From Pseudogymnoascus verrucosus (lineage: Eukaryota), in NCBI GenBank assembly GCA_001662655.1, contig KV460285.1: a stretch of DNA of 64,000 bases; one strand, given 5' to 3'. Made by a program: the position numbers and the translations under genes. The notes under the pieces were generated by a model that saw only the letters and a list, made by a program, of their open reading frames with translations, was not told the origin of the DNA and did not search any database. This document shows positions 19,049 through 45,667 of the stretch, piece by piece (the stretch's first letter is position 1; the number at the start of each line of letters is the position of its first letter).

Positions 19049-19790
19049 CCCGACCGGATTCGTCGGCGCAGGGTGGTGGGGTCGTGGCCACAATGCCGCC
19101 GAGACACACAGAGATTCTCCGTTGCCTATGGGTCTTCTATGGAGATATATGGGGTCTGCCGCCTATCCCCATCTCCTTCTCCAACTGTTTCTCCAACTCA
19201 ACTCGCCGAATCTCCGAAAAGTCAAGTTCCTGAATATCTCCGCCTCCATCTCTCCATCATCTCCATCATCCCCATGAATCTCCAACTTCTCCTCACCTCA
19301 CCCCATCTTCATCCCCCACGCGTCCCCAGGTCCAACCCCTCTGGTTTTGCCCCAACCGTCATGATGCTTTCAGCCTCTGCCGCTTCTGACGACCACTGAC
19401 GTCGTATCTCCAAAGTACAGGTTATGGAAGTTTCCACAGCCGCAAATGCACCCCGTGCCACCCCGTCCCTTCCGCCACCGACACTTGACAAAACCAGGTT
19501 CGGCTGACTAAGTGGTGTGCCGACCCAATGGGTTGCCGCGTTGCGCATCCACGCCGAGCCGAGCGAGGTTTCTGGGTCTACCATGATGTCATACCCACCG
19601 AGTTCTCACTTTTTCTGATATCCCCCACTCGAATCCGCCCCATCCGACATCTGCATTTAAAAAGAAAATCTGACTCGTTCCACTCTCCCATGACTTCTTA
19701 TAATCCCCCTTTAGACCTCACATTCTCCTTTCTAAACAATTTTTATTCAATTTTATAGCAACGAAACAAACTTGTCGAAACCCCACAATC

Positions 19791-21629
19791 ATGGGACTCC
19801 TCGACAAAGTGAAAGGCCATAAGGCCTCGGGCAATGGGCTCGACACGTCCGGAAGGACGTCTTCGGATCCCGGTATCAAAGAGCAGGAAGGCGGAATCGC
19901 CGATATCAATTTCGATCAAAACACAGACGACACAGAGACCATCATGAACAACCCGAACCTCGACGATGGGAAGGTACCACGCGTAACCTTCAGGACAGCT
20001 ATAATGGCTATCATCGCTGCCATGGGAGGTTTCATTTTCGGTTACGATACCGGACAAATCTCTGGATTCTTGGAGATGCAAGTCTTCTTGGAACGCTTTG
20101 GAGAGACGAACGCAGACGGGAAACTCTTTTTCTCAAATGTACGATCGGGTCTTATTGTCGCTCTTCTCAGTATCGGAACTGCCATTGGAGCCTTGCTTGC
20201 TGCACCGCTCGCGGATAGAATTGGCCGCCGAGGCTCAATTCCTTGGTGGTGTCTCATCTTCTGCGTCGGCGTTACCATCCAGATTGCTGTTGGCGATGGA
20301 CAATGGGTTGGTGTCGCAATGGGAAGATGGGTCGCTGGTCTTGGTGTTGGATCCCTCTCCGTTCTTGTCCCACTATACATGTCGGAGTCGACCCCCAAGC
20401 AAGTTCGTGGAGCCGTTGTGTGTTCCTACCAACTGTTCATCACCATCGGTATCTTCACATCCAACTGTATAAATTACGGCACAGAATCGCGCACGGATAC
20501 CGGCTCCTACAGAATTCCAATGGCCATTGGCTACCTCTGGGCACTCATCCTCTGCATCGGCATGCTCATGCTTCCCGAGTCGCCCCGTTATGATATCCGC
20601 AAAGGTTTCAACAAGCGCGCTTTCAACACGATGCAGAAGTTCTACGGCGTTCCCGTCAACCATCGCGCCATCGCTCTCGAGACTGCTGAGATTAACGCCA
20701 ACATCCGCGCATCTCAAGGATCACACGCCTGGTACGAGGTCTTCACCGGTCCTCGTATGGGCTACCGTACTATGCTCGCCATGGCCCTGCAGATGTTCCA
20801 GCAACTGACCGGTGCCAACTACTTCTTCTACTACGGCACCACGATCTTCGCTGGTGTCGGACTTTCGAACTCTTTTGTCACGGCCATGATCCTTGGTGGC
20901 GTCAACGTTGGCGCTACCTTCTTCGGTCTCTACTTCGTTGAGCACTTCGGACGCCGCAAGTGTCTTATCACTGGTGGCTTGTGGATGTTCATGTGCTTCA
21001 TGATTTTCGCCTCCATCGGACACTTCAAGTTCCAGCCTGCAATCGAGGGCAGCAACGACGCCAAGACCTACGGTACCGTCCTGATCGTCTTCGCGTGCCT
21101 GTTCATCTGCGGTTTCGCCTCGACCTGGGGACCCATGATCTGGGCCGTCAACTCCGAGATGTTCCCATACCGTTACCGTGCTAACGCCATGGCCCTCGCC
21201 ACCGCCTCCAACTGGATCTGGAACTTCCTCCTCGGTTTCTTCTCTCCTTTCATCACCGGCGCCATCGACTTCAGCTACGGCTATGTGTTCGCCGGATGCA
21301 ACTTGGTCGGTGTGGCCATCGTGTACTTCTTCCTCATCGAGTCGGCGACCCGCACTATCGAGGAGGTCGACACCATGTATCTCATCCACGTGCCGCCGCT
21401 CAAGTCGAGCAAGTGGACGAGCGAGATGATCGAGCGCGAGCTCGCCAGCAGTGATAACATGCACCTGGCGCACGGCGGGCGCAACGTCGAGAAGCGCAAC
21501 CGCGATGAGGAGGCGAATGCTCAGCAGGTTGAGGGCAACGGTGTCCTGGGGGGCAAGCTTGCTGGCGACGATTCGCTGCCTCAACATCCTCTGCCGGCTA
21601 ATGATCTGCCGGCGCATCTTCAACAATAG
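19791..21629 (+). CDS. MFS sugar porter (HXT-like hexose transporter)
   Basis: 612-aa ORF with GGFIFGYDTGQISG, DRIGRR, PESPR, QQLTGANYFFYYG, FGRRK and WGPMIW motifs; about 12 hydrophobic segments. Confidence 0.93.
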   Translation: MGLLDKVKGHKASGNGLDTSGRTSSDPGIKEQEGGIADINFDQNTDDTETIMNNPNLDDGKVPRVTFRTAIMAIIAAMGGFIFGYDTGQISGFLEMQVFLERFGETNADGKLFFSNVRSGLIVALLSIGTAIGALLAAPLADRIGRRGSIPWWCLIFCVGVTIQIAVGDGQWVGVAMGRWVAGLGVGSLSVLVPLYMSESTPKQVRGAVVCSYQLFITIGIFTSNCINYGTESRTDTGSYRIPMAIGYLWALILCIGMLMLPESPRYDIRKGFNKRAFNTMQKFYGVPVNHRAIALETAEINANIRASQGSHAWYEVFTGPRMGYRTMLAMALQMFQQLTGANYFFYYGTTIFAGVGLSNSFVTAMILGGVNVGATFFGLYFVEHFGRRKCLITGGLWMFMCFMIFASIGHFKFQPAIEGSNDAKTYGTVLIVFACLFICGFASTWGPMIWAVNSEMFPYRYRANAMALATASNWIWNFLLGFFSPFITGAIDFSYGYVFAGCNLVGVAIVYFFLIESATRTIEEVDTMYLIHVPPLKSSKWTSEMIERELASSDNMHLAHGGRNVEKRNRDEEANAQQVEGNGVLGGKLAGDDSLPQHPLPANDLPAHLQQ

Positions 21630-24749: not shown

Positions 24750-26622
24750 TCAAACCGCCTCCAAAGATATCTTGGAGAAGTCGGCGGGATCCAAGACAGG
24801 CTCCATCTTGCCAAAGGAGTAGACTCCGAACATAACGCCGGTAAAGGCACCTCCAATAGGCGGCGATCTGGTCAACAACTTGCTTTGCACTGATGCTAGC
24901 AATTTTGAGTCGTCTTTCCCTTCCTCATTGTAACTTAGCGTATATTGAAGGCCATCTCCTTGGATAGCCAAGGTTACTTGTCCTTCTGGGCCGAGAGGAT
25001 ACATAGATTCCTGTCACACGTTTAGCAATCGTCACTGCTGGCAAAGGGGCAACTTACGGTCAATACACCAATCTTGTCTGTTGGAGATCTTAACAGCAAG
25101 ACTCTCTTTCCAGCATCCGGTCCTTCAGACGCAATGGTTACTCCGATGCTGGCATAAGAAAACAAACTATACCAAACAACAATACCAGCCTCGTACCCTG
25201 CCTTGCTCGGTTGGAAGTTGAGTACGGCCTGGAAACGCTGCTGGAAAGTAGTTTGTTTCCGGAGAAGCAGCGTTGGGGCTTCAGCGCTGGAGAGGGGATA
25301 GCAACTACCATATAGGCGGAGATGGCCAGGCCTTTCAGATAGAGACCACTCCTGCTTCAAGGGTGTGTCTTGAATTTGTCAGAAAAAGGTACTGAGTGGT
25401 CAAATAAGATGTGAAGCTTACGTTTTTGGTACCAGCCTAGTTCGAGAGTCGACTTTTCCAGGTCTGCGTTCCATACATTTGCGGGAGCAAGCTGTCCTGT
25501 GTGCCTCCCTTCCGTCGCAATTGTGATATTCTTACCACCATTGAATATAGGCCAGTCATTCTCCCAGATGACCTTCACCAAAAATGTCTCTCTTCCTATG
25601 ACGCACGGTTTTAGCAGATATCCGGAATCCACGGTTGCTCACCCACATACCTAATGGAGAGTCCAGCCATTCCTTTTCACACAACCGTGGCCTAACACCA
25701 AGGAACACAGCCCACCAATCCCCTTTGGCATCCTCAAACACATCTGCGTGCCCGGTACTCTGCACCTCCTCTTCGGTCCCGTTATACCACAGCGGGTTCA
25801 CTGGCCCAAGCTCCCACGGACCTAGAGGCCCAACCTCACTCCTCAACACCCACTCTTGATGGCCAGCCTCGGTTCCTCCTTCTGCTGTGAACAGGTAATA
25901 ATACTTGCCACGCTTGATGATGTGCGACCCCTCGGCAATACCGTGCGGACTAGCTCTGATCACCTTCGGTGCCGTCAAGGTCCGCCCTGTGATGAGATCT
26001 ATTTCAGAGACGTGGATAGCAAAGTCCTTTAGTTTGCTGCCCACGGGCCTGTTGGCAATGCGAACAGTGGTAGAGAGGTACACCTTATCATCGTCATCCC
26101 AGAACAACTTCAAAAATTAGCCTGAGATGCGGAAATGTGGGGACAAAAACATACATCTTGATCAAAGCCTGGGTTATCGAAATACACGGGATCGGACCAG
26201 GAGTTGTCATCCCAGATATTATCAGTGAACACGTAGAATCCTCTCGGGAAGATTCGCTCCTAAACCATGGTCTCGTCAGTAGCCGCAACGTGTTTTCGAA
26301 TATATGAAGAGGGACGCACATCATCCTTTGGCCGATACCGGTCCCATTTGCAGGTCGTAAGGTAAACTCTCCCTTTGTGGTATCTAATAGTCGGCGCCCA
26401 GATTCCTCCAGACGGCTCAACAGTCCTCAAATTGAGTTGACTGCTCCTGGTCAGACCATGGCCAATCAATTTCCAATTCAATAAGTCTTTGCTGTGATAG
26501 ATTGGCAATCCGGGAAAGTATTCAAAGGTGGAGGTGACCAGGAAATAGTCCTCCCCAATCCGAATGACCGAAGGGTCCGGGTTGAAGCCGGATATGACAG
26601 GGTTATTAAAAGTTGCCGCCAT
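24750..26622 (-). CDS. Glycoside hydrolase family 43 (beta-xylosidase/arabinofuranosidase) with C-terminal ConA-like domain, multi-exon, no signal peptide
   Basis: NPVISGFNPDPSV, TSTFEYFPGLP, WAPTIRYH, LFWDDD, EGSHI, TGHAD, GRETFL, FTGVMFG across several exons. Confidence 0.92.
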
Positions 26623-27146: not shown

Positions 27147-29645
27147 TTAATGCCACAGTACGCCATCGTCGCAGGCAAACTTGAGCCACGACCCTTGAAT
27201 ATCTTGATCCCCGAAATTCTGCATAGTAAAGTCCATCCCAAAACCAAGAGGGTCCTCAAAAATGTCAAGAGCATTATGAGAACCGGCTTCTACAGGCAGT
27301 GAAGCATTTGTCTCTGCCATTCTTGCGCTCATCAGGTTATAACAGAGCAGGGAGCTTTTCTTCGCAGCATCTAGGACCACTGGTTCTGGATCAACGCCCT
27401 TCTCTGTGGAATCCAGGAGAGACAGAGTAATAACAATGAGCAGGCGTACCATGACGTTGTTTTCTTCCAAGGTAACACGATCCACAGAGAGGTCCAATAA
27501 ATCCAGTAAGCATTGCTTCAGAGAATCTCTGTTATCCTTTGTTTGCTGTACCATTGCCGGGCCGTCTTCCTTAAGTTGTGTATGTAGTTCATGGAATATT
27601 ATCGTGCTTGTATATGTAATGATGCTTTTAAAGCCGCCGCCCACAATCTTGAGCTGTGCGTAATCGTCCCGAAACATATTATCCACCGATTGATTTGCCA
27701 GAAGAGGTTCTGATGAGGGGTACTTGAGTATGGTCACGGCTGATTCAAGGCATATTTTCCTAGAATAGTAGAAGCGTGGATCTTTCATTCCTTTGGCGGC
27801 GAAAGGGCGATGGAGAAGTAGCAAGGCGAGGCGTAAGGGAAGATCGACCATGTTGATGTTAAGCTGTGTGACTCTGTCTTGTGATTGTAGCGACTGATTG
27901 ACTCTTAAGATAAATGTTCTGTTATCTCTCAATGCTTTCATCAGCTCAGCTCCAACTCGAAGAACATCATCGTATAAAGGCTTATTGCCAATACTATTTG
28001 AACATCGAATGAATTCTAGTCGGGGCCCAATGGATTGAAGAAGCATAATCTGCAACGACGTTTGTGTAAGTGTACTGTTTGGTTTGGGGGTTACGGGGTT
28101 ATTTGTGGCCTCGCTAATATCGACATCGTCAATATTAGCTGGTGGTGCAGTATCCCACTCCTGCTCAGTCTGCCAGATGTTAGCGACTATTATGTATGTG
28201 CAAGCTTCTTAAACTTACAATCAAGAAAGGCATCCCCGAACCAATTGAAGACTGAATATTCAGCTCGATTATCGTTGCCCACAATCTTCTGCGCATTTCC
28301 CCCTGTAGTATTCCTATCTTTGGCAAACTTGCCGGGTCACGATGGAAACCCATTTGCATCGCCGTTCGTAGGAGCGTACCAGCCGCTATCCAGACGACAT
28401 CGCCTGATATCGAGCAATATTGGCGTGCTATAATCAATAGACATTGAATTTGGATTGTTGACATGTGAAGTTTCGCCTTCTCAAAAGGAGTAGATTGCCA
28501 GGATTGTGCGGCAAAGATCCATTTCTTTGATTCAACTCGGTAATGTGTAGAGTCAGGACCCTGATAAAAGCACCCGCCTATTGACATGACAAGCAAAAGC
28601 TTGACGATAAATACGGGATTTGATACGTCGGGCTGATCCCAATACTGCCGGTATTCCTTCATAAATGATGGAATGTGAAGGATTCGGTATATGGATTCAG
28701 AGGTTCTGAAGTATGCATTTACCAACTGATCCGCAACTCCCTTTACGGGAACAGCATCTCTGAAGCATGGATTCTAAATAGGAGTGGTAAGTTAACATAC
28801 ATTATACCCTAGGTGTTGTATGAGTGGCGTTGGAGGCAGTCAAGAGTGAAAGGAGGAGGTTGCAACTTACTGCGAGCCATTGAGAATACGGAATTGCCTT
28901 CATACTTTTGGCGAGGGCCTTGCATTTTTCCATACTCTCCGTAATATCATCGACTTGCTCCGAGGAAGCATCGGAACAGCCCGAGGGATGTCTGGTAGAC
29001 TTGGCAAATAGATAAGCTATGTCGTCAAACTGCGAAGGTCAGCTTAACTTCTAGACTTGGCAAATGATAACATACAGCTCCGTGCGAATACATCCAGTGA
29101 GTGCCTCCCAAAAATCGCGTCTTCGATATGATGCCACCTAGCCTTTTGGGAGCTGCATTTGGAACTGGAGGTGGTGGGTTAGTAGTTCCCTCTGACTTGG
29201 CAATAGCCAACTGTGCTTCAAGGTTACGGATGCGATCGAGCAGGTCTTTGTTACGGAGTGCTTCCTCCTGGTGGGATTCACCCGGCTCCACAACCGGCGA
29301 GCCATATGAGCTGGGGCGGGTGGTAGTAGAGAGATGGGTAGAGGTGGGTGACACGCCAACTAAAGATGCATGCGTGCTTGAGCTACTCGGGATACTCCGT
29401 GCTCGATTTGGAAGCCCCGTTGACGATTGTCTGGGGAAGGAAGCCGGCGGGAAGGCGCCGCGTGTGCGACGAGACACAGCTGGAAGGATGGCGCTATAGG
29501 TACAAGAAGCAATTTTTGACTGCACACATTGGCCACAAGGCTGATTACGGTCGCATTTGACCTTCCGCCGTCGGCATGGCTCACATGAAAGAGCTGGCCT
29601 TCTTCGCTTTTTCACAGATGACGCGGGACTGAGAGGTGCGGACAT
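27147..29645 (-). CDS. Zn(II)2Cys6 transcription factor (multi-exon)
   Basis: KRRRPALSCEPCRRRKVKCDRNQPCGQCVQSKIASCTY; KTRFLGGTHW; MGFHRDP, EMRRRLWATIIEL; LLLHRPF, FYYSRKICLE. Confidence 0.92.
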
Positions 29646-30370
29646 GGCGGGGATAAGGTCCTGGATTTGTGTTAGATGCAACCTCGAAATTTCTCGATAA
29701 ACGGTGGAATCCAGCAGCACTTACGGATGTAGCGGTCTTACACTAAGGGTACTCTTCAGGAAGGAGTGCTTTTGCCGCAAATTGTGTGACAAATGTGAAT
29801 TTCCCGATGATGAGGGATTGTCGGTGTTTAAAGGCAGTCCCTTCGGTCTTTTGGGGTTGTTTGGATGGCTAAGTCCGAGACAGGAAGATAATAAGCCGTG
29901 CGTTTATCTCCGTCCCCTGTGTTCTCAAACATCCTCGAAAAGTTTTAGCTATTCTACCCAACCAATATGTGGTGCTTTAAGAATTTAAGATTTGTATTGA
30001 ATCTCCAACCATCTTTGTAGCGACTAGATTTACCTTGAGGCAGATGGATGACTTGAACGAGCTTACGACGCGGTATACCCGTTTTCGGTTCGGGGATAAC
30101 GGCAAATTACACAACATGGCAGTGATCAATAATATAAGCAGTGAAAGGTTCCTCCAGTACTACTGTTCCACAAGCTCCAGTCAAAAGCAAACTGTTTCAT
30201 TATATTGGGAGGTTCGGGCCTGCCCTTGTGTTAAAAGACCTGTCGTTCGGGCGTTCCTGCCGTCTGTTTAAGTCAAAACATACTAATGTTATAAAATTCT
30301 ATTTACTTTAGTCTACATCGTCTACTATCGTTTCAATTACCACCCAAACGCCCATAATATCAAGCAAAAC

Positions 30371-31642
30371 ATGGCACCTATGAAAATCCTCGTCAGCGGT
30401 GGAGGCATTGCCGGCAATGCAGTAGCCTTTTGGCTGTCAAAGCTCGGTCACGAAGTCACCGTTGTCGAACGGTTCTCAAGCCTACGAATCACAGGACTCC
30501 AGATCGACCTCCGCCTCCACGGGATTGAGGTCTTGAAACGCATGGGTCTCGATGAGGCTTTCCGTGCCAACGCCGCTCCAGAGCAGGGCATTCAGGTAGT
30601 CGACAAGTCGGGCAGACGGCGCGGCTACTTCCCAGCGAATACGTCTGGCAAAGGAACTCAGAATTTCACTAGCGAGTATGAGATTATGAGAGGGGATCTT
30701 TGTCGTATTATGCACGATGTTACCAAGGATCGAGTCGAGTATATCTTCGGAACGTCGATCGAAAGCTTCGAGGAGACGGATGGCGCCGTTGAGGTTAGGT
30801 TTGCGGACGGCAAGACGGGAAGGTATGATCTCTTGATTGGTGCCGATGGCCAGGGATCGCGAACACGCAGGATGATGCTCGGACCCGGTGCCGCGGATCC
30901 GTTCGTCCCCATTGGCGATGGGGAATACATCGCATACTTCACTATCCCTCGGCCGATGCGTGAAGGGGAGGGGTACATGGCCACTTTCTACCTCGCTACC
31001 AGAAATAGATGGGTGTTGACTCGACGGAGCAATTCGAAGGAGATACAGGTCTACCTGGCCTGCAAGCTTGATGCAGGGAAACTCAGAACTGCTTATCAGG
31101 AAGGTGTCGAAGAGGAGAAGGCGGCCTTGGCAGAGGTTTTCAAAGGCGCTGGGTGGCAGCTGGATGAGATCTTGGAGTCTCTCAAAGACACCGACAACTT
31201 CTATGGCGATGAACTAGGTATTGTCAAGATGGAGTCTTGGTCGCGCGGCCGTGTAACTCTTCTTGGAGATGCCGGGTTTTGCCCGTCAGTAAATACGGGA
31301 ATGGGCACTACCAGTGCCATGGTGGGTGCTTATATCTTGGCTGGCGAGATTGGGAGACACTGTGGTGGAGATGCCAGTAAAGGAGGTGATACCAAAGATG
31401 GTATTGCGGCCGCGCTCAAGGCCTACGAGCAAAAGTTTCGCCCATTCATGAACCACGTACAAAAAGGAGTGGAGGAAAAGTCGAGCTTGGACTCATTCAC
31501 GTCAACATCGTTTGGAATTGCCGTCATCAATTGTCTCGTGGGGATAGCCTCTTTATTCAAGGTGAATATTGGGAAGTGGAGCCTGAAGGAGACTCTCGAG
31601 GGATGGGAACTCCCGGAGTATGAAGAGTTGGCACGGGATTAG
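30371..31642 (+). CDS. FAD-dependent monooxygenase/oxidoreductase (flavin hydroxylase type)
   Basis: 423 aa with GGGIAG Rossmann motif, LIGADG (DG motif) and LLGDAG...GMGTTSA (GD motif). Confidence 0.9.
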   Translation: MAPMKILVSGGGIAGNAVAFWLSKLGHEVTVVERFSSLRITGLQIDLRLHGIEVLKRMGLDEAFRANAAPEQGIQVVDKSGRRRGYFPANTSGKGTQNFTSEYEIMRGDLCRIMHDVTKDRVEYIFGTSIESFEETDGAVEVRFADGKTGRYDLLIGADGQGSRTRRMMLGPGAADPFVPIGDGEYIAYFTIPRPMREGEGYMATFYLATRNRWVLTRRSNSKEIQVYLACKLDAGKLRTAYQEGVEEEKAALAEVFKGAGWQLDEILESLKDTDNFYGDELGIVKMESWSRGRVTLLGDAGFCPSVNTGMGTTSAMVGAYILAGEIGRHCGGDASKGGDTKDGIAAALKAYEQKFRPFMNHVQKGVEEKSSLDSFTSTSFGIAVINCLVGIASLFKVNIGKWSLKETLEGWELPEYEELARD

Positions 31643-32415: not shown

Positions 32416-33877
32416 GTTTGACTATTTAGGTAGATGTGAAAGCGATGGAAAGCAAAGCTGAGCTTGAAGGTGTCATATCGAGGGATATACATCATGATTT
32501 TATAGCCGCGGAAAGGGCTGAGAGTTCGTAAAAGGCTGACAGCTCCCTGCATTCAGCCTCTGGGGAAAAAGGCAACCACGGGTATCACAGAACTGGAAAG
32601 GCGGTATGAAATACGAGCTTGACTCTATGAATAACCTGCCAACAGCGCCACCGTATTTGACTGTCAAATCGGAAAGCACTGTTCTTGGGCGATCACGTTC
32701 CTCTATGCTGGTTGACCTACCAGAGAATCTTGGAAAACGTCCGTTCGGGCGTGTTCGTTCAGACATTCGTTGTCACGACGTTGAATACGAGCCCTATGGA
32801 GATCTTATACCGCGTAGGATTCGCGGGGAGAGATGCGACTCGTCATCTGATCACGGGCATTGGGCTGTGAGGGCTGAGAACCCAAGTAGTGGCGTAGGCG
32901 GTGACATAAACAGGACTGGTCTGTACAGTAAGCAGATAGGCATTACGGCTCGGGAGAATTGTTTGCCCGACGCACTTTCAACGACCACCGTCCATCCCGT
33001 CCCTTCGTTGGTTGGCAAATCCATTTCATTTCAATGAACGCATCCCACAAATCCAAATGTCAGAGCTGAACCTCAGGGCTAAATTTGATGCTGAATTGAT
33101 CCCTGGGGGCTAATGTCAGCGAGCCTTGACAGTGCAAATGACTCGTATACGTATATGTTGTTTTAATCTGGCTGAAGACCAATCCCAGGTAGAACGGCAG
33201 GAGCTACATTCCCTTCCCTTGAGGAGCCTGATCTGATGCGTGACACATTGCAGGTAGGAGATGACTTTATACACGCCAGTGTGTCTGTCCAGACTCATAT
33301 CTCTATCTCAGAATATGAGGCGCATACTATTACGCTGTTTACTATTCTCCTCTTCTTCCCCAGATTTATTGTTTGTCCGCGCGTCCCTTAAGTCTACAAC
33401 TTTGGTCGGGGTCCAAATATGACATCTATGTCTGAGTTCGGCACCAGCCGAGGTAAAGTAGCTCCAATGACGGCACACATAGCTTTCCCAACAGAAAGTG
33501 GCGTGAGGAAAAGAGAAAACATTTCGCCTTCTACTCTACCAGTCGCGAGGCTATTCGCGTCTTGTTTCTTTCATTGTTGCCGGGGAGCAGTGTCTTTCGT
33601 GAAGGTTGGATCCAGACCGAGGGACAACACGTTTGGATCGCTCGAACACAAAAAGAGACGCTGTGTGGACCGCATATGACATTCCGCCTTGGTGATGGCA
33701 TCTGAGGTTACCAAAGGGCTTAAGGGGAGTACTTGTAACAATAGGAAGTCTATACGCGTGAGCGTATCTATATACGCACTCCAATACGCCCACCATTAGT
33801 CGTATAACATGCGGATGCGTTGTTGAAGCATCCATTAGTTATTCGAGAAATTCGCCTCTCCAGTCTCTGTCGACAGC

Positions 33878-36800
33878 ATGCCTGGTTCTGATCGGCGCGA
33901 AGCCGTGCAAGTCGCGACGACCGTCACGATCGTCATTGCCTTTGTGTTCGTGGCACTACGGATGATAAGCCGGATATTTATCACGAGGCGTACAACCTTG
34001 GATGACTACGTGATGATACTCGCCTGGATAATTGCATTTGGAGGTTCTTTTACTATTCTACTTGCGGCACGAAAGGGGTTTGGCTTGATGGATGCAGAAC
34101 TCAAACCAGAGTGGATAACGACTTTGAAGAAATGCGGGTATATCTACAGTATTATTTATGTGTGTATATTCCTACTTATAATAGCATGGACCTCTAGCAG
34201 TGCAGAGCAGGAATGGAGTGGAATATGAGGGAAAGGGATCGAACTAACAATTATCAGAACCCAGCACTTATGGCTACCAAGACGAGCATCCTAATATTCT
34301 ACCTACGCCTTTCGAGGACGAATAAGCTGTTCCGGATTGGAACGTACGCAACAATGGGAGTGGTAAATGTGGTAGGCCTAATATTGACATTTATCAATGT
34401 TTTCCAGTGCCACCCACTCGACAAGATCTTCTCGGACTCTTTTGTTGATCCGACACAGAAGTGTATACCGTTAGTCACACTTTTTCTCGCCTCGTCGCCG
34501 GCTAATATCTTCACTGATCTTGCGATATTGGTACTTCCAATACCTGTTCTCACCGGTATGCATCTACCTATGAGACAGAAAACAATACTAGTCTTAACGT
34601 TCGGACTCGGAATATTTGTCACCATTGTCGACGTGATCCGAATCTATTACCTCCAGCAAGCCCTAGGACCTACAACTGCTAATTCCAGCTCACCACAAGG
34701 AACGCCCGGACTTGGTGCAAGTCCCAACTTTGTATTCAATGTATCGTACGGTCTAATGTGGTCGATTGTGGAGGTGAATGTCGGCATTATATGTGGTTGC
34801 ATCCCGCTACTGAAGCCATTGGTATCCAAGACAATGCCGAAGCTCATTAACCCTCCTGGGTTTCATGGTAGCCAGACATCGTCTCAAGTCTCAGCGACCC
34901 TGACAAGACCGGCGGAAATGCCCACGGATCGGGCCCCTGCCAGGCAGAACAACATAGAAGGGTTCACGCCCTTAAACTTTAGAATGCCGGGGACCCCTTT
35001 GCCGGAAATGTCGATGACGCCAGGTCCGAGTCTCGGGACGCCTATTCTACAGAATTCACATCGAACATCAGTATCATCCACCGGCGGAGTGGGCGAGGCG
35101 CCCTCGCAGTTGGCCTCACGACGAGTCTCGCTTTCGCCAGTCCATGAAGGCGGGTCGTCCATGCAGCAAACATCTCAAGAGCCTTCATTGCAGCCCTCAC
35201 AAGATCCACTTGATTCACCCGTCCTAGAGAGCAGTACCCCCATAGAGCAAACCGAGTCTTCAACTTCACCTTCAACCGAGCATGAGAACTTTTCTCCCAG
35301 GCGAAGGTACCCGCAACAGACAGCTCTTTCACAACAGAATGATGCCGACCACCAAGTACAGAACGATGCACAGCCAGCACAAGAAGGAATGTTCTCGCCA
35401 GAACAACAACAACATCAAGAAATGGACATGCTCAACTTTCTCACCTCGCCTGGGATGCCTCCAAGAACTGAATCCGGGCCTGACCGACCGAACCAAATCC
35501 ATTTTGGTTTTGTTAAAATCCGTCAGCCAAGATCTATGCTGCGCACTTCTGCAAAAGACTCGTGGAAATACTGTGCTTGGGTCTCAGTTTCTTTCTTCCT
35601 ATTAGGATTTTCTTACGGGCTACTCAACACACTCAACGTCCAAATATCTCTGATCGCACGTTATACGCGAGCACTGACCGTATCTCTGCACACAATGTAT
35701 TTTGCCGGATATTTCTTCGGCCCCTTAACGGTTGGGTTGTACTGCCTGAGAAGGGGTGGGTTTAAGGTGACATTCATGGTCGGTCTTTGCATCCTTGGAA
35801 CTGGGACTCTCGTTTTCTGGCCTTCCTCCATCCTTCTTACATATCCGGGCTTTATCATTTCCAATTTTATCATTGGATTTGGCTTGTCTGTTTTCGAGAC
35901 CACCGCGAATGCCTTTGTCCTCCTCTGCGGCCCGCCACGCTACGGCGAGTCTCGCCTTCTAGCAGTTCAATTCGTTCAGAGTATCGGTGCAATTGTCAGC
36001 CAGCTCCTGGTTGAGAAGGCTTTTTTTCCCTCTAATGAAGTTCACAATAACGTCCTTAGTATACGGTGGACATATCTTACTATTTCCTTCATCACAGTCA
36101 TCATCGCCCTTGTTTTTCACTACACGCCACTACCAGAGGCGAGCGATGAGGACCTCCAAGACTCTCTCCAGCCCCAGCTTTTACCACTTAATCGCGTTAT
36201 TAACGACGATCCTAGTAATCGCATTTTTGGCTTTCGAGTTGTCTATATAAGCCTCGCCTTCGCCTGCTTCACCATGTTCTGCTATATGTTCTCCCAGGAG
36301 AGTTTCAATGTTTGGTTCAACAATTCACTCCTCTCCTCCACCAACGTAATAGACGGTACCCACCGGCGCCAGTTACTATCCCCGAATTTTGTTCTCTATG
36401 GGCATTGTGCATTCTCAGGGTCGTTGCTATTGGCCTCGGCATTGTGTCTCTACGTGCGGCCGCGCATCATCCTACTCGGAGCCCTCTTAGGCAGTGCAAC
36501 ATTTAGGTTGGCGTTCATTCTGATTCCAGCTGAGCTGGAGAAGAAAAACAGTTCGAAGATTGCGGGACTGGCCGTAGCAGAATATTTCTGTGAGGCCCCC
36601 ATATATGCAATTATTGTGGGGCTGGCGCTGAGGGGCCTCGGCGCGAAAACAAAGCTCGGTAGTGCGTTGGTTATTACTATGAACATAGGAGGGGCGGCGG
36701 GACCATGGGTCGTTCTTGGGGTTATTAAGGGGATGGGGAATACTCGGAGGCCATTTGTTGTTGGGGTTGCTTTCTTGTTCTTCGTATCACTTTATCCACT

Positions 36801-37077
36801 GTATCTGTCTGTGGTGCCGAAGGCTAGGGCGATTGTAGATTGGCCTGATGACGGCGAAGCTGGAAGCGAGAGGAGGGTGAGCCAGTCTGACTCGATGGCG
36901 GCCGTGGAGGCTGCGAATGCGGGAGTGTATAGTAGTAGGCATCATGGGATGCATTGGCCTGCTCTTGTGGAGAAAGAGTTTGCGCATATTAGGAGAGCGA
37001 GTTCCACGAGCGGGAAGGCCGTGAGCAAATGGGCTGGCAGTGTCAGGGACTGGACGAGGAGAGTCAGCGGGTTGTAG
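33878..37077 (+). CDS. Fusion protein: Pth11-like 7TM receptor domain + S/P/Q-rich linker + FucP/GGP-family MFS domain (1033 aa)
   Basis: Exons 33878-34159 and 34258-37077. Pth11-like motifs: VALRMISR, LDDY, NPALMATKTSIL, QCHP, TDLAILVLPIP, WSIVEVNVGIICGCIPLLKP. FucP-like motifs: GFSYGLLNTLN, GFKVTFMVGL, FETTANAF, LPEASDEDL, LRGLGAKTK. Both domains lie in one uninterrupted frame. Confidence 0.88.
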
Positions 37078-37539: not shown

Positions 37540-39468
37540 TTACTCCCTAACCTCCTTAATCGGCCCCAAATACGTCGTCTTGCCATAAGCATACCAGGCC
37601 ACCGCACTGAAAATAAACGTTCCCCCGTACACAACACTCGTATAATTCATATTCACAGCCGTCACTGGAACAAACGCGGGAAAGAACATCCAAATCGACA
37701 CAAACAACGCGTACACCAGAGAGAATATGTTAAGGGGCATACCCCATCTCCCGAGGTGCCACGGGCCAAAGGGGATTTCATCCCCTGAGAGCCGACGTAC
37801 CACGAGAAGTGCAATTGGGACGATGTAGGTGGAGTACAAGGCCACGGTTGCAAGGCCGGTGATGGCATAGAAGGCGGCCGTGGAGGCGATATTGATTAAG
37901 CCAAGGACGAGTAGGGTGGCGGCGGTGAGGATAATAGATCGGATGGGGATGTGGCGCGTGCTGTGAACCTGGGACGTGTTAGTTTCAGCGAAGCGCAGGA
38001 AAATTGATACTTACGTGCGCAAAGTAGGTCGAGTAAGGCAATCCGTTGTCTCGGCAGAATGCCCAAGTCATACGCGAGGCGGCGGAGAGAAGACCCCAGG
38101 TGGATGTTACGGCCGAAAAGACAATGCCACACACCATCAGGGTTGCGGCCAACTTCGAACTCGTCGCGAAGTAGAATATTTCGATAATTGGGAATCCCGT
38201 GGGGGTCGAGAGGGCGGCGTTGATATCCCCCATGCTGAATAAGAGCGCAATTAGGAAGCCGAAACCGAGAGAGCCATTGAGCACTATACTTGTGATCATG
38301 GCGCGCGGAACGACGGTTGTTGCGTTTTCAATTTCCTCGCTCATGTGCCACGCACCGTCAAAACCTGACTCGGATATGAGACATTGTAACATTAACACAG
38401 GAATTTCGACTTACCAGTAAATGGAAAGGCGCTTGTGAGAAGGCCAACACACCAAGACACGCCATCGCTACTCCAACCTCCTTTGTTCTCAAAATCCGTG
38501 AAGACCCACTCAGCTGAATGTTGCGGTGCAAGACACACCATCGGGATTAAAAGGAGAAACCAGAGCCCTATATGCATCAAGAGAATGATGCTTTCTAGGT
38601 GAGGTAGAATCTTGATGCCAAAGATGTTCACGACGACTGCTGAAGTGACAATCGCAGTATAGAGCAGAGTGCCATGCCATCGCTCGTATACATATGTGTC
38701 GTCGTTTAGGACTAGGAGACCTTGAATCAAAGTCCCGCCGAGGAAGGCTGGTGCCGCCGTAGCAGCTAGCCATGCAAGGACTGAGGCCCATCCTGCGGTG
38801 TGTTAGAATGTTGTACGGCACGACTTTCATGGATGTCTTACCAGTGTACCACCCCAACAATATGGAGTACTTGCGCGGTGCCAGCTGCGCAACCCAGTGA
38901 TACTGCCCTCCAGACGTTGGACTCCTGTTGTGCAAAATTGATTAGAGACAATTGGCCAAACTTTTAAGACATGGCTGGCTTACATTGATGCCATCTCACC
39001 CAGCGACGCACAAGTCGCGAGCGTACCGAAGAAACAGAGAATGAAGCCATATACCAGCGACACGGGACCGCCATTGAGGAGTCCTCCTTGCAGTAAGCTG
39101 TGCTTGGATTAGCCTTTAGCTTGCAGTTGTATGAGGATTACCAACGCTGATAATGGTTCCCATGTAGCCATCAATGTGCTTGAGAACCCCTGGATGCGCG
39201 GTCAGCGCTGTGGCTATCGACTCTGGTATCACTCTGAGGCTGTTCGCACCACCATGGATATGAAGCCAAAGTTCCGCTACTGCTATTAGCTGTATGTCCC
39301 CACCAGTTCATAGCGCCGGAAGCTTACCTTCAGCGCCTGCTTCTTCCCCAAGTTTGCAAGAACCGCTCGGTCACGGCTGCCATAAGAGTACTCCTCGTCA
39401 TCGTTCTTGACCTCGCCCGAGCCGTTCCTGCTGGGCCGGCGCCCTGTCATCTCGAATTCCATAGTCAT
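37540..39468 (-). CDS. APC-superfamily amino acid/choline/GABA permease (many introns)
   Basis: Spliced motifs RNFGFISM, LLNGGP, EMAS..PTSGGQYHWV, GFDGAWHMSEE, SRMTWAFCRDNGLP, MNYTSVV. Confidence 0.9.
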
Positions 39469-40160: not shown

Positions 40161-41467
40161 ATGAGCGAAGAGTCAGATCCAAACCCGCTGGCGGCCTTGT
40201 CACCTCCGCATTGGGTGATTAGCGATACTGATCATGGTGGATATGTGGTTATAGCAAACTGGACGATGATGTGTTTTATGGTTATCACAGTCATTGTCCG
40301 CCTGCTCAGGAAGTTATCCATCAGGTCATGGAGCCTTGATGATAATCTGATTGCAGCTGCTGGTGTAAAGAAGCCCTCTACTCAAGTTTGCCTCCCCAGA
40401 CCAAACTGACAACAACATAGGCATTTGGACTGATACAATGCGGCATACTTCATAAAGCAGTCCTAGCTGGTCTTGGACGCCACGAATCAAGCCTACTCGA
40501 CGGCGAGATAGATATGTACAACAAATATAACTACACATACCAGATTCTATTTATCATAACGACCGTCCTGGCCAAGATGTCGCTGCTCCTTTTCATCACA
40601 AGATTGACACCAAACGTGGCCACAATTAGAGTGGGAAGGATCATTCTATGCCTCATTGCTACATGGGGAGTTGCGACTGTCATTGCATTTGCATTCCAGT
40701 GCTCCTTGCCACAACCATGGAACAACATCTCTGGTGTCTGCAAAAACCAGGCTGCACTATACTACGCTGCCGGAATCATTGATATCATCACAGACATCGC
40801 CCTTACCATTCTGCCAGTTGTCATCCTCTGGGGTGTCCAGATCCAGCGAAGAAAGAGGGCGATAGTGATGCTGGTGTTCATGGCCAGAATGCTGTGGGTT
40901 ATTTAGGCGCCTAGCTTGAGGGAGCAACAGCTAACCAGACTCCACAGTGTATGCCTTGCAGAGATCCCGCGATTGATCTATTTGTCGCGATACATTGGAT
41001 CTACTGACAAACCCTGGTACGGCGCCAATGTGGCAATTTGGACACAGTAAGAAACCCCCCCACCAAAGATCCACCCCTATTTCGCTGACACCAGTCCTCC
41101 ACGTAGGGCAGTTACGCACCTCAGCATTGTCACAGCTTGTATTCCCAGCCTACAGCACCTTTTGGCGAGCATGCAATCCGGCGTCTTCAACACGGCCCTC
41201 CCAGCTGGCTTTGAGGGTGGGCTCTCCTACACGCTTGAGTCTACTGGTAGTGGAGGCATGTCACGCGAACTATACGGCTCAAAGAGGGTCGGGACAACGC
41301 GCACAACGGTCGAGTCTGGCACACAGCCACCGCGATCGGAGAGCAAGACGCGCCTGGTAGTGGATGGGGGCATTTACAAAACAACGGAGTTCGTGCTGAA
41401 CAACGTAGACAACGATCAAGATAGCGGAGCGCGGAAGCGGGGCCCGCCGGCGGGACGCACCGGCTGA
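40161..41467 (+). CDS. Pth11-like integral membrane protein (no CFEM domain), 4 exons
   Basis: DHGGYVVI, SLDD, GLGRH, LAKMSLL, FQCSLPQPW, DIITDIALTILP, WTQ...SIVTACIP after removing introns near 40365-40400, 40894-40947 and 41047-41107. Confidence 0.85.
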
Positions 41468-43729: not shown

Positions 43730-45667
43730 ATGCCTATCATGTCTGATAAGGAGGATGTCAAAGAGAGACAAGTTGGGGCTGTTGGTGAGTCTCTCCGAGC
43801 CCGGATTAATTCATGAGACATTCCGTCAGGGAGAAATAGAACAGTCGCTGACCCCCACTCTATAGACTCAGAGCTGAGCCAGGACAACAGTATCCGTAAG
43901 TGACAAGTCCTTTCTGAATCTCCTCAAGGAGTGGTTGCTGAGGCCAATTGGCACAGCAGATGCACTTCCATGTGATGTGATAGCCAGCATAATTGTGCTC
44001 AACTGACGTTCCATCACAGCCAGCTCTCGCGATGGGGAAGTCGACGTCTTCGCCGAAGTTGCGCATCCACCGCGGACGATTGGTGCCCTGGAGGTGCTCT
44101 CTGCTGGATTCAATGTCTGCAATAGTTGGGCCGGTGTGGCCGCGTCCATGTTCCTCGCCATCTTCCAGGGAGGGCCAGTGACGATCATCTATGGCTGCAT
44201 CGTCATTCTCTTTCTGATGGGCGCGACGGCATTGAGCTTGGCGGAGCTGAGTGCCAGATATCCAACTGCTGGAGGGCAGTACCATTGGACTGCGATACTC
44301 GCACCGAAAAAGTATGCGAGAGGAATGGTATGTTTTTGAACCATGTGTAGCTTGACTGAGCCTGACGAGAAACAGAGCTACACGGTTGGCACCATCAACA
44401 TGTTTGGATGGGTCGCCATCTGCGCTGGTATTTGCATCATCATGCCCCAGATCATCATGGGGATTGTTGTCTTCTACAACAATGATTTTGTGATTTTGCA
44501 GTGGCATTCGTTTTTGATATACCAAGTCCTCAACGTCTCAGTGCTTGTTTACAACCTCTTTATTTTACCCAAGGCAGCATGGACACATAATATTGGCTGT
44601 TGGTATATCTGCTTCCGCTTTTGAGTCTTACTAACGACCTTACCAGTCGCATTGTCCCTGCTCTGCTTTATCATCTTTTTCATTACATGTCTCGCCATCG
44701 CCGGCCCCAAGCAGCCAAACGAATATGTGTGGAACACCTTCGTCAATGATTCCGGCTGGCCCGACGGAATAGTCTTCCTTACTGGCCTAGTAAACCCCAA
44801 TTTTATGTACTCCGGTCTTGATGGAGCCATTCATCTTGCGGAGGACTGCATCAACGCTTCGACGGCCGTCCCGCAAGCCCTCATGGCCACCATTGTCATC
44901 GGCTTTGTGACGACCTTCGCATTTGTAGTCGCCATGTTCTATTGCATTTCTGACTTCGATGCGGTCCTTATGACTCCAACTGCTGTCCCCATCTATGAGA
45001 TTTGGAACCAGGCGACTAAGTCCGAGACCGCCGCTACGATCTTCATCGTCCTTCTCCTCCTCACCGGCATCTTTGCTCTCAACGCCAGTCAGCAGACCGC
45101 CTCTCGCCTGACGTTCTCCTTTGCTCGCGATGATGCTCTCATCTTCTCCAAATACATAGGCCAGATGCATCAAGGCCTTGGTGTCCCACCATACGCACTT
45201 TTCTTTAACTCTTTTGTTGTCTTTATTATCGGATGCATCTATCTCGGCTCCACCACGGCTTTCAGCGCCATCATCGGCACCGGCCTTGTCCTGCAACAGC
45301 TCACATTCGCCATTCCAGCCGCTTTACTCATGATACGTGGCCGGGCGCCGCAGTATCTCCCATCGAGCGGGCGCTGGAACTTGGGGAAGTTTGGATGGTT
45401 TGTCAACGGCGTAACAGTGGCGTGGAGCGCCCTCCAACTCGTGCTGTACAATCTCCCTCTCGCGCTGCCCGTGTCGGGTTCAACTATGAGTAAGTCCCTC
45501 CCCATCTTCCACGGTAAATTTAAATGACCTGGGCCTTGCTGATTCTTTGTGCAGATTATACCTGTGCGGTTCTTGGCTGCATGGCTATATTCGCGCTGGT
45601 GAACTGGTTTGCCTACGCGCGCACGCGTTATGCTGGGCCAAAGATCGACTTGACCAAGTTTCAGTAA
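43730..45667 (+). CDS. APC-superfamily amino acid/choline permease (multi-exon)
   Basis: GFNVCNSWAG, GGPVTIIYG, ELSARYPTAGGQYHW, GLDGAIHLAED, SRLTFSFARD, MNYTCAV; stop TAA at 45665-45667. Confidence 0.9.

Follow-up and report, generated by a model that had tools for sequence, protein, structure and literature searches.

Can a receptor and a transporter share one polypeptide, and which of the two would then do the sensing? This question is raised by a gene of the fungus Pseudogymnoascus verrucosus, which lies at positions 33878-37077 of a 64,000-nucleotide stretch of contig KV460285.1 (NCBI GenBank assembly GCA_001662655.1; this whole stretch is the window, and its numbering is used throughout). 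From the letters of the window alone, an original prediction had described the gene as a Pth11-like seven-transmembrane (7TM) domain joined to a FucP-type major facilitator superfamily (MFS) permease, and had proposed that the product is a single-chain sugar transceptor. Filamentous fungi have no larger receptor-like class than the Pth11-like proteins, for which no ligand is known in the available portion of a 2026 review (PMC13308352); a 7TM domain that is tied covalently to an assayable domain offers a direct route to what a Pth11-like domain does and senses. Our comparative analysis adds four points that are new here: the fusion has a single origin in the tree of its MFS half, the proton site of the transporter half was relaxed after the fusion, the two halves are conserved to different degrees, and the copy in the window is a divergent paralogue with a long linker.

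Gene structure and predicted protein

The gene (33878-37077, plus strand) has two exons, one 98-nt intron and a 1033-aa product. Exon 1 (33878-34159, +; 94 aa) begins with the ATG at 33878 and encodes the 7TM domain from its N-terminus through the first two transmembrane (TM) helices into the start of TM3. The intron (34160-34257, +) opens with the donor GTGTGT, carries the branch point ACTAAC at 34243-34248 and closes with the acceptor CAG, and exon 2 (34258-37077, +) adds 939 aa plus a TAG stop codon (37075-37077). An open reading frame scan of the region returns a 959-codon stop-to-stop frame on the plus strand (34198-37077) and a second plus-strand frame of 129 codons that spans 33839-34228. 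Splicing is required, because the two exons are in different frames and read-through of the intron meets a stop codon at 34226-34228. The joined translation of both exons equals, over all 1033 residues, the deposited hypothetical protein VE01_10362 of P. verrucosus.

A single exon holds everything from the second half of TM3 in the 7TM domain to the stop codon, and the fusion therefore cannot be an annotation merge. The earlier claim of one gene read in one frame, with no gene-model merge, is thus borne out by the open exon 2. A merge was also considered as a candidate explanation in its own right, and is ruled out by this exon together with the presence of both domains in 112 of the best 120 relatives.

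Both domains named in the original prediction were recovered by profile hidden Markov models (PF20684 and PF07690) as well as by fold. In Pfam, PF20684 (Fung_rhodopsin) is matched by exon 1 over profile positions 1-71 (E 5.4e-8, 33.1 bits) and by exon 2 (E 1.6e-45, 156 bits), in each case above the cut-off of 27 bits, and the two matches jointly cover profile positions 1-237, that is, the whole profile. The match to PF07690 (MFS_1) barely exceeds its cut-off (E 2.6e-8, 33.6 against 33.4 bits); the identity of the MFS half is secure despite this marginal score, because FucP matches it by sequence and by structure. VE01_10362 has no match in Pfam to the sugar-porter profile PF00083 and none at E <= 1 to the CFEM profile PF05730, and six residues precede TM1.

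The exon 2 portion of the 7TM domain (34258-34845, +; residues 95-290), which comprises the rest of TM3 to TM7, is followed by a linker (34846-35415, +; residues 291-480), a juxtamembrane segment (35416-35565, +; residues 481-530), an MFS domain of the FucP family (FHS) with 12 TM helices (35566-36825, +; residues 531-950) and a C-terminal tail (36826-37077, +; residues 951-1033). A full-length AlphaFold 2 (AF2) model, built with 112 family sequences, places these parts in the same order: seven helices, a stretch with a predicted local distance difference test (pLDDT) score below 50 (about residues 296-499), twelve helices and a tail of low confidence. Its mean pLDDT is 71, its predicted template modelling (pTM) score is 0.68, and 268 of the 1033 residues fall below a pLDDT of 50. 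As modelled, the locus encodes one 19-helix membrane protein composed of a 7TM domain, a linker, a juxtamembrane motif, a FucP-family MFS domain and a tail.

Phylogenetic spread of the fusion

A protein search with the MFS part, covering proteins of 516-1644 aa, gave 347 matches among 8000 scored candidates. Among the best 120 of these 347 matches, 112 carry both PF20684 and PF07690, four carry only PF07690 and four only PF20684; orthologues with the same fusion, which the original prediction had suggested seeking, thus exist. The named members among the best 120 are Leotiomycetes. In the ESM Atlas, the same domain set is present in 4 of 30 matches, and the three clusters shown there have 184, 60 and 97 members. 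A profile search across 1.84 billion representatives returned 546 matches below 1e-30, and dozens of those listed cover the whole profile.

Fused proteins were found in Pezizomycetes (Rhizina, Choiromyces, Sphaerosporella and Pyronema), Eurotiomycetes (Talaromyces, Penicillium and Microsporum) and Dothideomycetes (Phaeosphaeriaceae and Trichodelitschia), and, unexpectedly, also among the Basidiomycota, in Tremellomycetes, where the proteins of Cryptococcus depauperatus, Saitozyma sp. JCM 24511 and a Tremellales sp. are full-length and contain both Pfam domains. When distant members were re-scanned with Pfam, both domains were present in 13 of 15, the proteins of Penicillium canescens and Sphaerosporella having PF20684 only. 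Short matches to the 7TM part, which are fragments and in some cases marked partial, add Sordariomycete and further Dothideomycete names (Staphylotrichum, Purpureocillium, Aureobasidium and Elasticomyces). The fusion is old and widespread across several Pezizomycotina classes, and is not peculiar to the P. verrucosus genome. In public databases the architecture is present under automatic names, such as 'Rhodopsin domain-containing protein', 'L-fucose permease' and 'MFS general substrate transporter'.

For the history of the fusion, we used a family alignment of 320 rows (>=250 aa), in which coverage separates 171 fused from 61 MFS-only sequences and from 88 partial ones, the last being left out of all counts. 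A tree of the MFS columns was computed with FastTree (LG+gamma) from 223 tips, nine MFS-only rows without TM1 having been dropped, with 13 bacterial FHS proteins as the root. A single clade of 199 tips contains all 171 fused proteins (support 0.79, then 0.96 one node further in). A Periconia protein and a 10-tip unfused group, mostly from Mycena, branch before this clade, and the Pezizomycetes (Rhizina, Choiromyces, Sphaerosporella and Pyronema) stand at its base, matching the species tree. On this topology, the fusion family is of single origin and arose near the base of Pezizomycotina. Such a conserved fusion argues for a joint function of both halves.

The fused clade also contains 28 MFS-only tips, which mostly appear to be fragments. 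Several of these entries start in the linker part of the profile at their own residues 1-4, and several have a fused protein as a neighbour in the tree or as a fellow member of a 90% cluster. The 'stand-alone' protein of Drechslerella is probably a truncated gene model, because the fusion-specific juxtamembrane motif is present in it.

Some deposited models in the family deserve separate mention. The MFS-only protein of Saitozyma podzolica (430 aa) is in a 90% cluster with an 897-aa fused protein and is therefore probably a split model. Three others look like merges: one with a MYST histone acetyltransferase ahead of the fusion, one with half of an Aa_trans permease followed by half of PF20684, and one of 1343 aa with ~470 extra N-terminal residues.

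The Tremellomycete members nest within the Pezizomycotina clade of the MFS tree, a position that suggests horizontal transfer to Tremellomycetes. Pth11-related proteins have been stated, in the portion of a survey available, to be absent from Basidiomycota (PMC5526305).

The transporter half

By sequence, FucP of E. coli is the only solved relative of the MFS half (E 1.6e-15 with the single sequence, and 9.9e-34 with a 40-member family profile against 3o7q), and the best Foldseek match of the AF2 model is again FucP (3o7p; E 6.7e-12, TM score 0.77 on the target, ~22% identity). The nearest NCBIfam model is the fucP equivalog TIGR00885, to which the protein scores 89.7 bits against a cut-off of 280.4, and for NF007524 the score is 62 against 427. 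Because the equivalog scores lie below their cut-offs, the MFS half is an FHS-type relative and not a fucose-permease orthologue. The description of FucP-family proteins as sugar:H+ symporters, given in the original prediction, consequently does not apply to it in the ordinary sense: the protein falls below the fucP cut-off and has Asn at the position of the H+-carrying Asp46.

This assignment comes from a family-profile alignment to FucP, which has a high posterior probability and is anchored on the FFLW motif common to TM1 of both proteins. It maps FucP D46 to N551 (codon 35626-35628, +), E135 to E641 (35896-35898, +), N162 to Q668 (35977-35979, +), Y365 to Y877, W38 to L543 and R312 to L817. 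When a single sequence is aligned to FucP, the posterior probability around D46 is low. We considered whether the change from Asp46 to Asn might be an alignment artefact; this is ruled out by the family-profile alignment and by the lack of any acidic residue in the TM1 segment of the window protein.

In FucP, Asp46 is the putative H+ site and is essential for H+-dependent active transport, and Glu135 takes part in substrate recognition (PMC4882079; PMC3824880). Asp46 has further been named as the analogue of XylE Asp27 (PMC4882079), and the difference between XylE Asp27 and GLUT1 Asn29 has been described as a key element of the divergence between symporters and uniporters (PMC5491310).

The D46 position is Asp in all 24 unfused tips outside the fused clade. 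Within the 199-tip clade it is N in 151, G in 15, D in 12, S in 7, T in 7, F in 3, E in 2, A in 1 and L in 1, with 27 parsimony changes; the 171 fused proteins themselves have N in 137 and D in 9 cases. The E135 position is Glu in 162 of the 171 fused proteins, and its equivalent is lost, with a strong PF20684 match kept, in Talaromyces (Y), Microsporum (Q) and Penicillium canescens (D). Asp at the D46 position is retained in the basal Pezizomycetes Rhizina, Choiromyces and Sphaerosporella, and the fusion therefore preceded the loss of Asp46. These patterns suggest that the MFS half has no longer depended on the canonical proton site since the fusion, and that solute may be bound, and perhaps passed, without proton coupling.

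A second acidic position has to be considered in this context. E873 (codon 36592-36594, +) is a fungus-specific Glu in TM10 of the MFS domain and sits four residues before Y877, the counterpart of FucP Y365. Among the fused proteins, 139 of 171 have Glu here, as do the unfused fungal relatives, and the sampled bacterial FHS proteins have Met. Glu325 of LacY sits in helix X. This residue has been named as the proton site of LacY (PMC4882079).

The receptor-like half

Modelled alone with AF2 (first 300 residues, 70 family rows), the 7TM domain reaches a pLDDT of 89 and a pTM of 0.88 and consists of seven long helices, the first of which span residues 7-36, 41-65 and 77-112. In a comparison of this model with 48,161 chains by VIA-align, the top match is the G-protein-coupled receptor (GPCR) Ste2, a fungal pheromone receptor (7ad3_B; Z 18.7, root-mean-square deviation 3.8 Å, alignment over 249 of 298 residues). 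Behind it rank designed folds of GPCR type (16.3 and 16.0), TAS2R14 (15.8) and adiponectin receptor 2 (15.5), and GPCRs fill the match list. The predicted fold of the N-terminal domain is GPCR-like, which in itself says nothing on coupling to a G protein.

The loop between TM4 and TM5 contains two cysteines, Cys145 and Cys163; they are shared by at least 90% of members, and the model places them in paired strands. D181, D219, R222, E266 and N268 are the conserved polar residues among the invariant or near-invariant columns of the domain. Pth11 itself has been reported to act through MagB, a G protein, and the cyclic AMP-protein kinase A (PKA) pathway, and no ligand is listed for the Pth11-like class in the available portion of the same review (PMC13308352).

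Unequal constraint on the two halves

The 7TM half is closer than the MFS half to the window protein in all 157 comparisons made with fused proteins outside its own orthologue group (median identity 61% versus 42%). The same asymmetry holds in every pair of 60 sampled members. In the 14 Pseudogymnoascus orthologues, 13 of 92 otherwise conserved MFS positions are changed, including the sites of W38 (Leu543) and R312 (Leu817), against 1 of 69 conserved 7TM positions. These 14 orthologues lie at a root-to-tip distance of 3.26 in the MFS tree, the remaining fused proteins at 2.67 +/- 0.24.

P. verrucosus has a second member of the family, VE01_01208, which is 843 aa long and 46% identical, and has a 56-aa linker and Trp at the position of FucP W38. 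VE01_10362 is thus a divergent, long-linker paralogue of Pseudogymnoascus, and VE01_01208 is the more typical of the two. VE01_10362 has the look of a duplicate in which the 7TM half is held and the transporter half drifts or specialises, and its further changed conserved MFS residues point to sensing more than to bulk uptake. Overall, a sensor-like role agrees with the comparative data, in which loss of the proton site appears to follow the fusion, conservation is stronger in the 7TM half, and the MFS half of this protein shows further divergence.

These data also bear on a simpler explanation, namely that the protein is a plain solute transporter, either facilitator or symporter, and that the 7TM domain is an accessory for folding, targeting, membrane-domain localisation or turnover that does not signal as a receptor. 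An accessory domain is unlikely to be more conserved than the catalytic domain, as it is here in 157 of 157 comparisons, and the E135 equivalent is lost in Talaromyces, Microsporum and Penicillium canescens while the PF20684 match stays strong; moreover, the 7TM fold is closest to that of a true GPCR. Yet the MFS core is well conserved, with 92 positions at or above 85% and E135 in 162 of 171 proteins, Asn is, as in uniporters (PMC5491310), the selectively favoured residue at the D46 position, E873 could serve as an alternative proton site, and the Pth11-like class is without a known ligand in the portion of the review cited above (PMC13308352). We regard a plain transporter as somewhat unlikely. 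Even as a facilitator with a mere accessory domain, the protein would belong to a subclass that has gone unrecognised within the FHS family as well as within the Pth11-like family.

Linker, flanking segments and topology

The linker is predicted to be cytosolic and disordered, with a pLDDT below 50 over residues 296-478, and is rich in Ser (29 of 190 residues), Pro (24) and Gln (22). It measures 181-202 aa (~190) in the eight Pseudogymnoascus orthologues compared, among which it is 54-86% identical; VE01_01208, the paralogue, and three other Helotiales have linkers of 54-64 aa. At the base composition of the linker, 190 codons would be free of stops by chance with a probability of ~6e-4. The original prediction had described a Ser/Pro/Gln-rich linker at about 34850-35500; this was accurate in composition and position, with the refinement that a conserved motif, and not linker, occupies the final ~50 aa ahead of the MFS domain (35416-35565).

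Could this frame nonetheless give rise to two products, either from an internal promoter or start near the Met-rich motif at residues 483-494 or by cleavage in the linker? The linker is a long disordered stretch with poor conservation beyond the genus, Met codons lie at the start of the conserved segment ahead of the MFS domain, and MFS-only as well as 7TM-only database entries exist. Against this, the frame is open through the linker with the low chance expectation given above, and the linker keeps its identity and length among the eight orthologues. The fusion is kept across several fungal classes, with linkers down to 54-64 aa, and the MFS-only entries in the fused clade are N-terminally cut fragments or adjoin fused proteins. 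In addition, a 7TM-only product would need cleavage, because no stop codon separates the parts. Two separate products are thus highly improbable.

The juxtamembrane segment (EMDMxxFLTxPGM ... FGFVxxRxPxSML) directly precedes MFS TM1. Its occupancy is 0.97-1.00 among 120 family members, with F510 and P518 as invariant residues. Of the 10 fused members shown, 6 have a clear F[GD]FV core, which the Mycena, Periconia and bacterial FHS proteins lack. In the AF2 model, residues 475-490 form a helix and residues 508-515 a small hairpin, both at low to medium confidence. Its conservation makes this segment a candidate coupling element between the two membrane domains.

The tail has a pLDDT of ~41-58 over most of its length. 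Four RRxS motifs lie in parts of VE01_10362 that are predicted to be cytosolic, one in the linker (RRVS at residue 382) and three in the tail (966, 1006 and 1028), and they fit what we take to be the PKA consensus; a fifth match, RRTT at residue 37, is in the short loop between TM1 and TM2. An RRxS-like motif (RRxS or RKxS) is present in the tails of 4 of 6 other members inspected.

Sequence and helix positions together reveal a positive-inside pattern in the 7TM domain, with basic residues after TM1, TM3, TM5 and TM7. N-glycosylation sequons are found at 236 and 255 in the TM6-TM7 loop, and a further sequon at 782 is likewise in a loop predicted to be outside. The N-terminus of the 7TM domain is accordingly predicted to be outside and the linker cytosolic. 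Because an MFS domain must begin on the cytosolic side, this predicted position of the linker makes the fusion topologically coherent.

Whether the two membrane domains touch is addressed indirectly by the full-length model. At a length of 1033 residues, d0 in the pTM is ~10.7 Å, and a pTM of 0.68 despite the disorder would need a low predicted error between the two membrane domains; the two halves may, as judged from this value, be physically coupled. A complex prediction of the 7TM domain (1-295) against the MFS domain (480-960), run without alignments or controls, gave a score of 0.03 against a mark of 0.34 and is evidence in neither direction on binding.

These features are relevant to the direction in which information might flow. 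Receptor families usually vary in the part that faces the ligand and conserve the part that gives the output. The reading 'MFS senses, 7TM transmits' is preferred over its reverse because the 7TM half is the more conserved one, which is a pattern argument. In the reverse case, the 7TM domain would sense a surface or chemical cue and would gate or regulate the MFS domain via the linker and the juxtamembrane motif. Pth11 itself is reported to sense surface cues (PMC13308352), the outward TM4-TM5 loop with its two conserved Cys in paired strands resembles ligand-facing GPCR loops, a conserved motif stands directly ahead of MFS TM1, and the RRxS sites of linker and tail could transmit PKA feedback. 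However, Pfam reveals no CFEM or other extracellular domain, and a ligand-sensing part usually varies more, yet it is the 7TM half that is more conserved here. We consider this reverse flow quite unlikely.

Surrounding genes

Upstream of the fusion gene, the window contains a sugar-porter gene (19704-21626, +; PF00083, E 7e-130), a fragment of a GH43 glycoside hydrolase (25559-26116, -), a Zn2Cys6/Fungal_trans regulator (27150-29720, -) and an FAD-dependent monooxygenase (30287-31639, +). Downstream, an amino-acid permease gene of at least three exons (37543-38802, -; PF13520) is convergent and ends ~470 bp from the stop codon of the fusion gene. It is followed by a fragment of an unfused Pth11-like gene (40421-40903, +; PF20684, E 1.1e-25), ~3.3 kb downstream of the fusion gene, and by another amino-acid permease (44625-45524, +; PF13520). 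We considered the neighbouring Pth11-like gene at 40.4 kb as a recent tandem duplicate; its 27% identity to the 7TM half rules this out. No coherent pathway, and hence no functional cluster with the fusion gene, was seen among the flanking genes between 19704 and 45524.

Discussion

The persistence of the fusion, an Asp that is free to vary only after the fusion and the constraint on the 7TM half together suggest that the two halves act as a unit and that the transporter half has changed its job. In the reading that we favour, the MFS half would no longer be an H+ symporter and would bind a solute, perhaps letting it pass, with the sugar-site Glu retained and Asn in place of the proton-carrying Asp, as in the comparison of the symporter XylE with the uniporter GLUT1. 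Its occupancy or conformational cycle would be read by the more strongly conserved 7TM half, which would relay a signal into the cell. The protein would then be a hard-wired nutrient sensor, or transceptor, with a proton-independent solute-binding module. Such a transceptor is plausible from the comparative sequence data, from which we also infer the direction and nature of any signalling between the halves; we hold the complete proposal tentatively, somewhat short of an even chance.

Several observations weigh against it. The node that unites all fused proteins has a support of 0.79 only, and the unfused outgroup, obtained by a word-filtered search, is small (13 bacterial proteins, one from Periconia and 10 tips mostly from the genus Mycena). 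The argument for packing of the two membrane domains is one summary value, the pTM. In VIA-align, helical bundles often reach Z ~14 from their arrangement alone, and a Foldseek search of the PDB with the 7TM model gave no match at E <= 0.001, the weak best hits being GPCRs of several classes (E 2.6e-3). To our knowledge, G-protein coupling of Pth11-like proteins that lack CFEM is poorly documented. H+ coupling may not have been lost, because E873 could carry the proton instead. Finally, the strong preference for Asn at the D46 position and the 92 MFS positions conserved at >=85% fit a facilitator as well as a sensor.

A bolder version of the sensor proposal treats the family as a Rosetta stone: the 7TM domain, with its GPCR fold, would read the conformation of a transporter and not a free ligand, and the MFS domain would have become a ligand-binding 'antenna' after the fusion. 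We think this unlikely, and mention it for what it would imply. If it were true, a new type of hard-wired nutrient receptor would exist in several Pezizomycotina classes, including dermatophytes and the bat white-nose fungus, and some stand-alone Pth11-like proteins might work with separate transporters in trans. The fusion does occur in animal- and plant-associated fungi, among them Microsporum, Pseudogymnoascus destructans, Rhynchosporium and Cadophora.

In full-text searches of the literature and in searches within preprints on 'modular fungal rhodopsins' and on GPCR classification, a review and a survey of Pth11-related proteins, with supplementary tables outside their scope, we found no description or functional characterisation of a Pth11-like/FucP fusion, in line with the earlier impression that the architecture is uncharacterised, and the three locus tags searched for had zero occurrences. 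A survey of Pth11-related proteins required ~80% overlap with the Pth11-related 7TM proteins of M. oryzae and mentions no MFS fusion in the portion available (PMC5526305). Because of this required overlap, the filter would exclude long fused proteins.

The fused family can be compared with several known systems, beginning with the two families that it joins. Like Pth11 and the Pth11-like proteins (class XIV, PF20684), VE01_10362 matches the whole profile with its N-terminal 290 residues, and has seven helices and a GPCR-like fold. An N-terminal CFEM domain defines Pth11 proper, not the Pth11-like proteins. Unlike Pth11, VE01_10362 has no CFEM domain, and its 7TM domain is followed by a 12-TM MFS domain, giving 19 TM helices. 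The Pth11-like family is found mainly in Pezizomycotina, as is the fused family, but the latter also occurs in Tremellomycetes. With FucP (3O7Q/3O7P, FHS), the MFS half shares the 12 TM helices, the FFLW motif in TM1 and the Glu of E135 (E641); it differs from FucP in having Asn for D46, Leu for W38, Gln for N162, Leu for R312, an extra Glu in TM10 and a 530-residue N-terminal extension that contains the 7TM domain.

Other resemblances are structural or logical. The class D GPCR Ste2 (7AD3) is the top structural match of the 7TM half, but the two are 8% identical and have no relationship at the sequence level. The Asp-to-Asn difference at the TM1 proton site is like that between XylE and GLUT1, although these belong to a different MFS family and the consequence here is deduced by analogy. 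Snf3 and Rgt2 are sugar-porter proteins that signal via a cytosolic tail. Like them, and like the transceptors Pho84, Gap1 and Mep2, the fused proteins would, in logic, reuse a transporter fold for nutrient sensing (for a review of nutrient transceptors, see PMC3824880). Unlike Snf3 and Rgt2, VE01_10362 belongs to the FHS family, has no PF00083 match and possesses a whole second membrane domain where those proteins have a signalling tail. Should it be a sensor, it would represent a new architecture for nutrient perception, distinct both from Snf3/Rgt2 and from Gpr1-type receptors.

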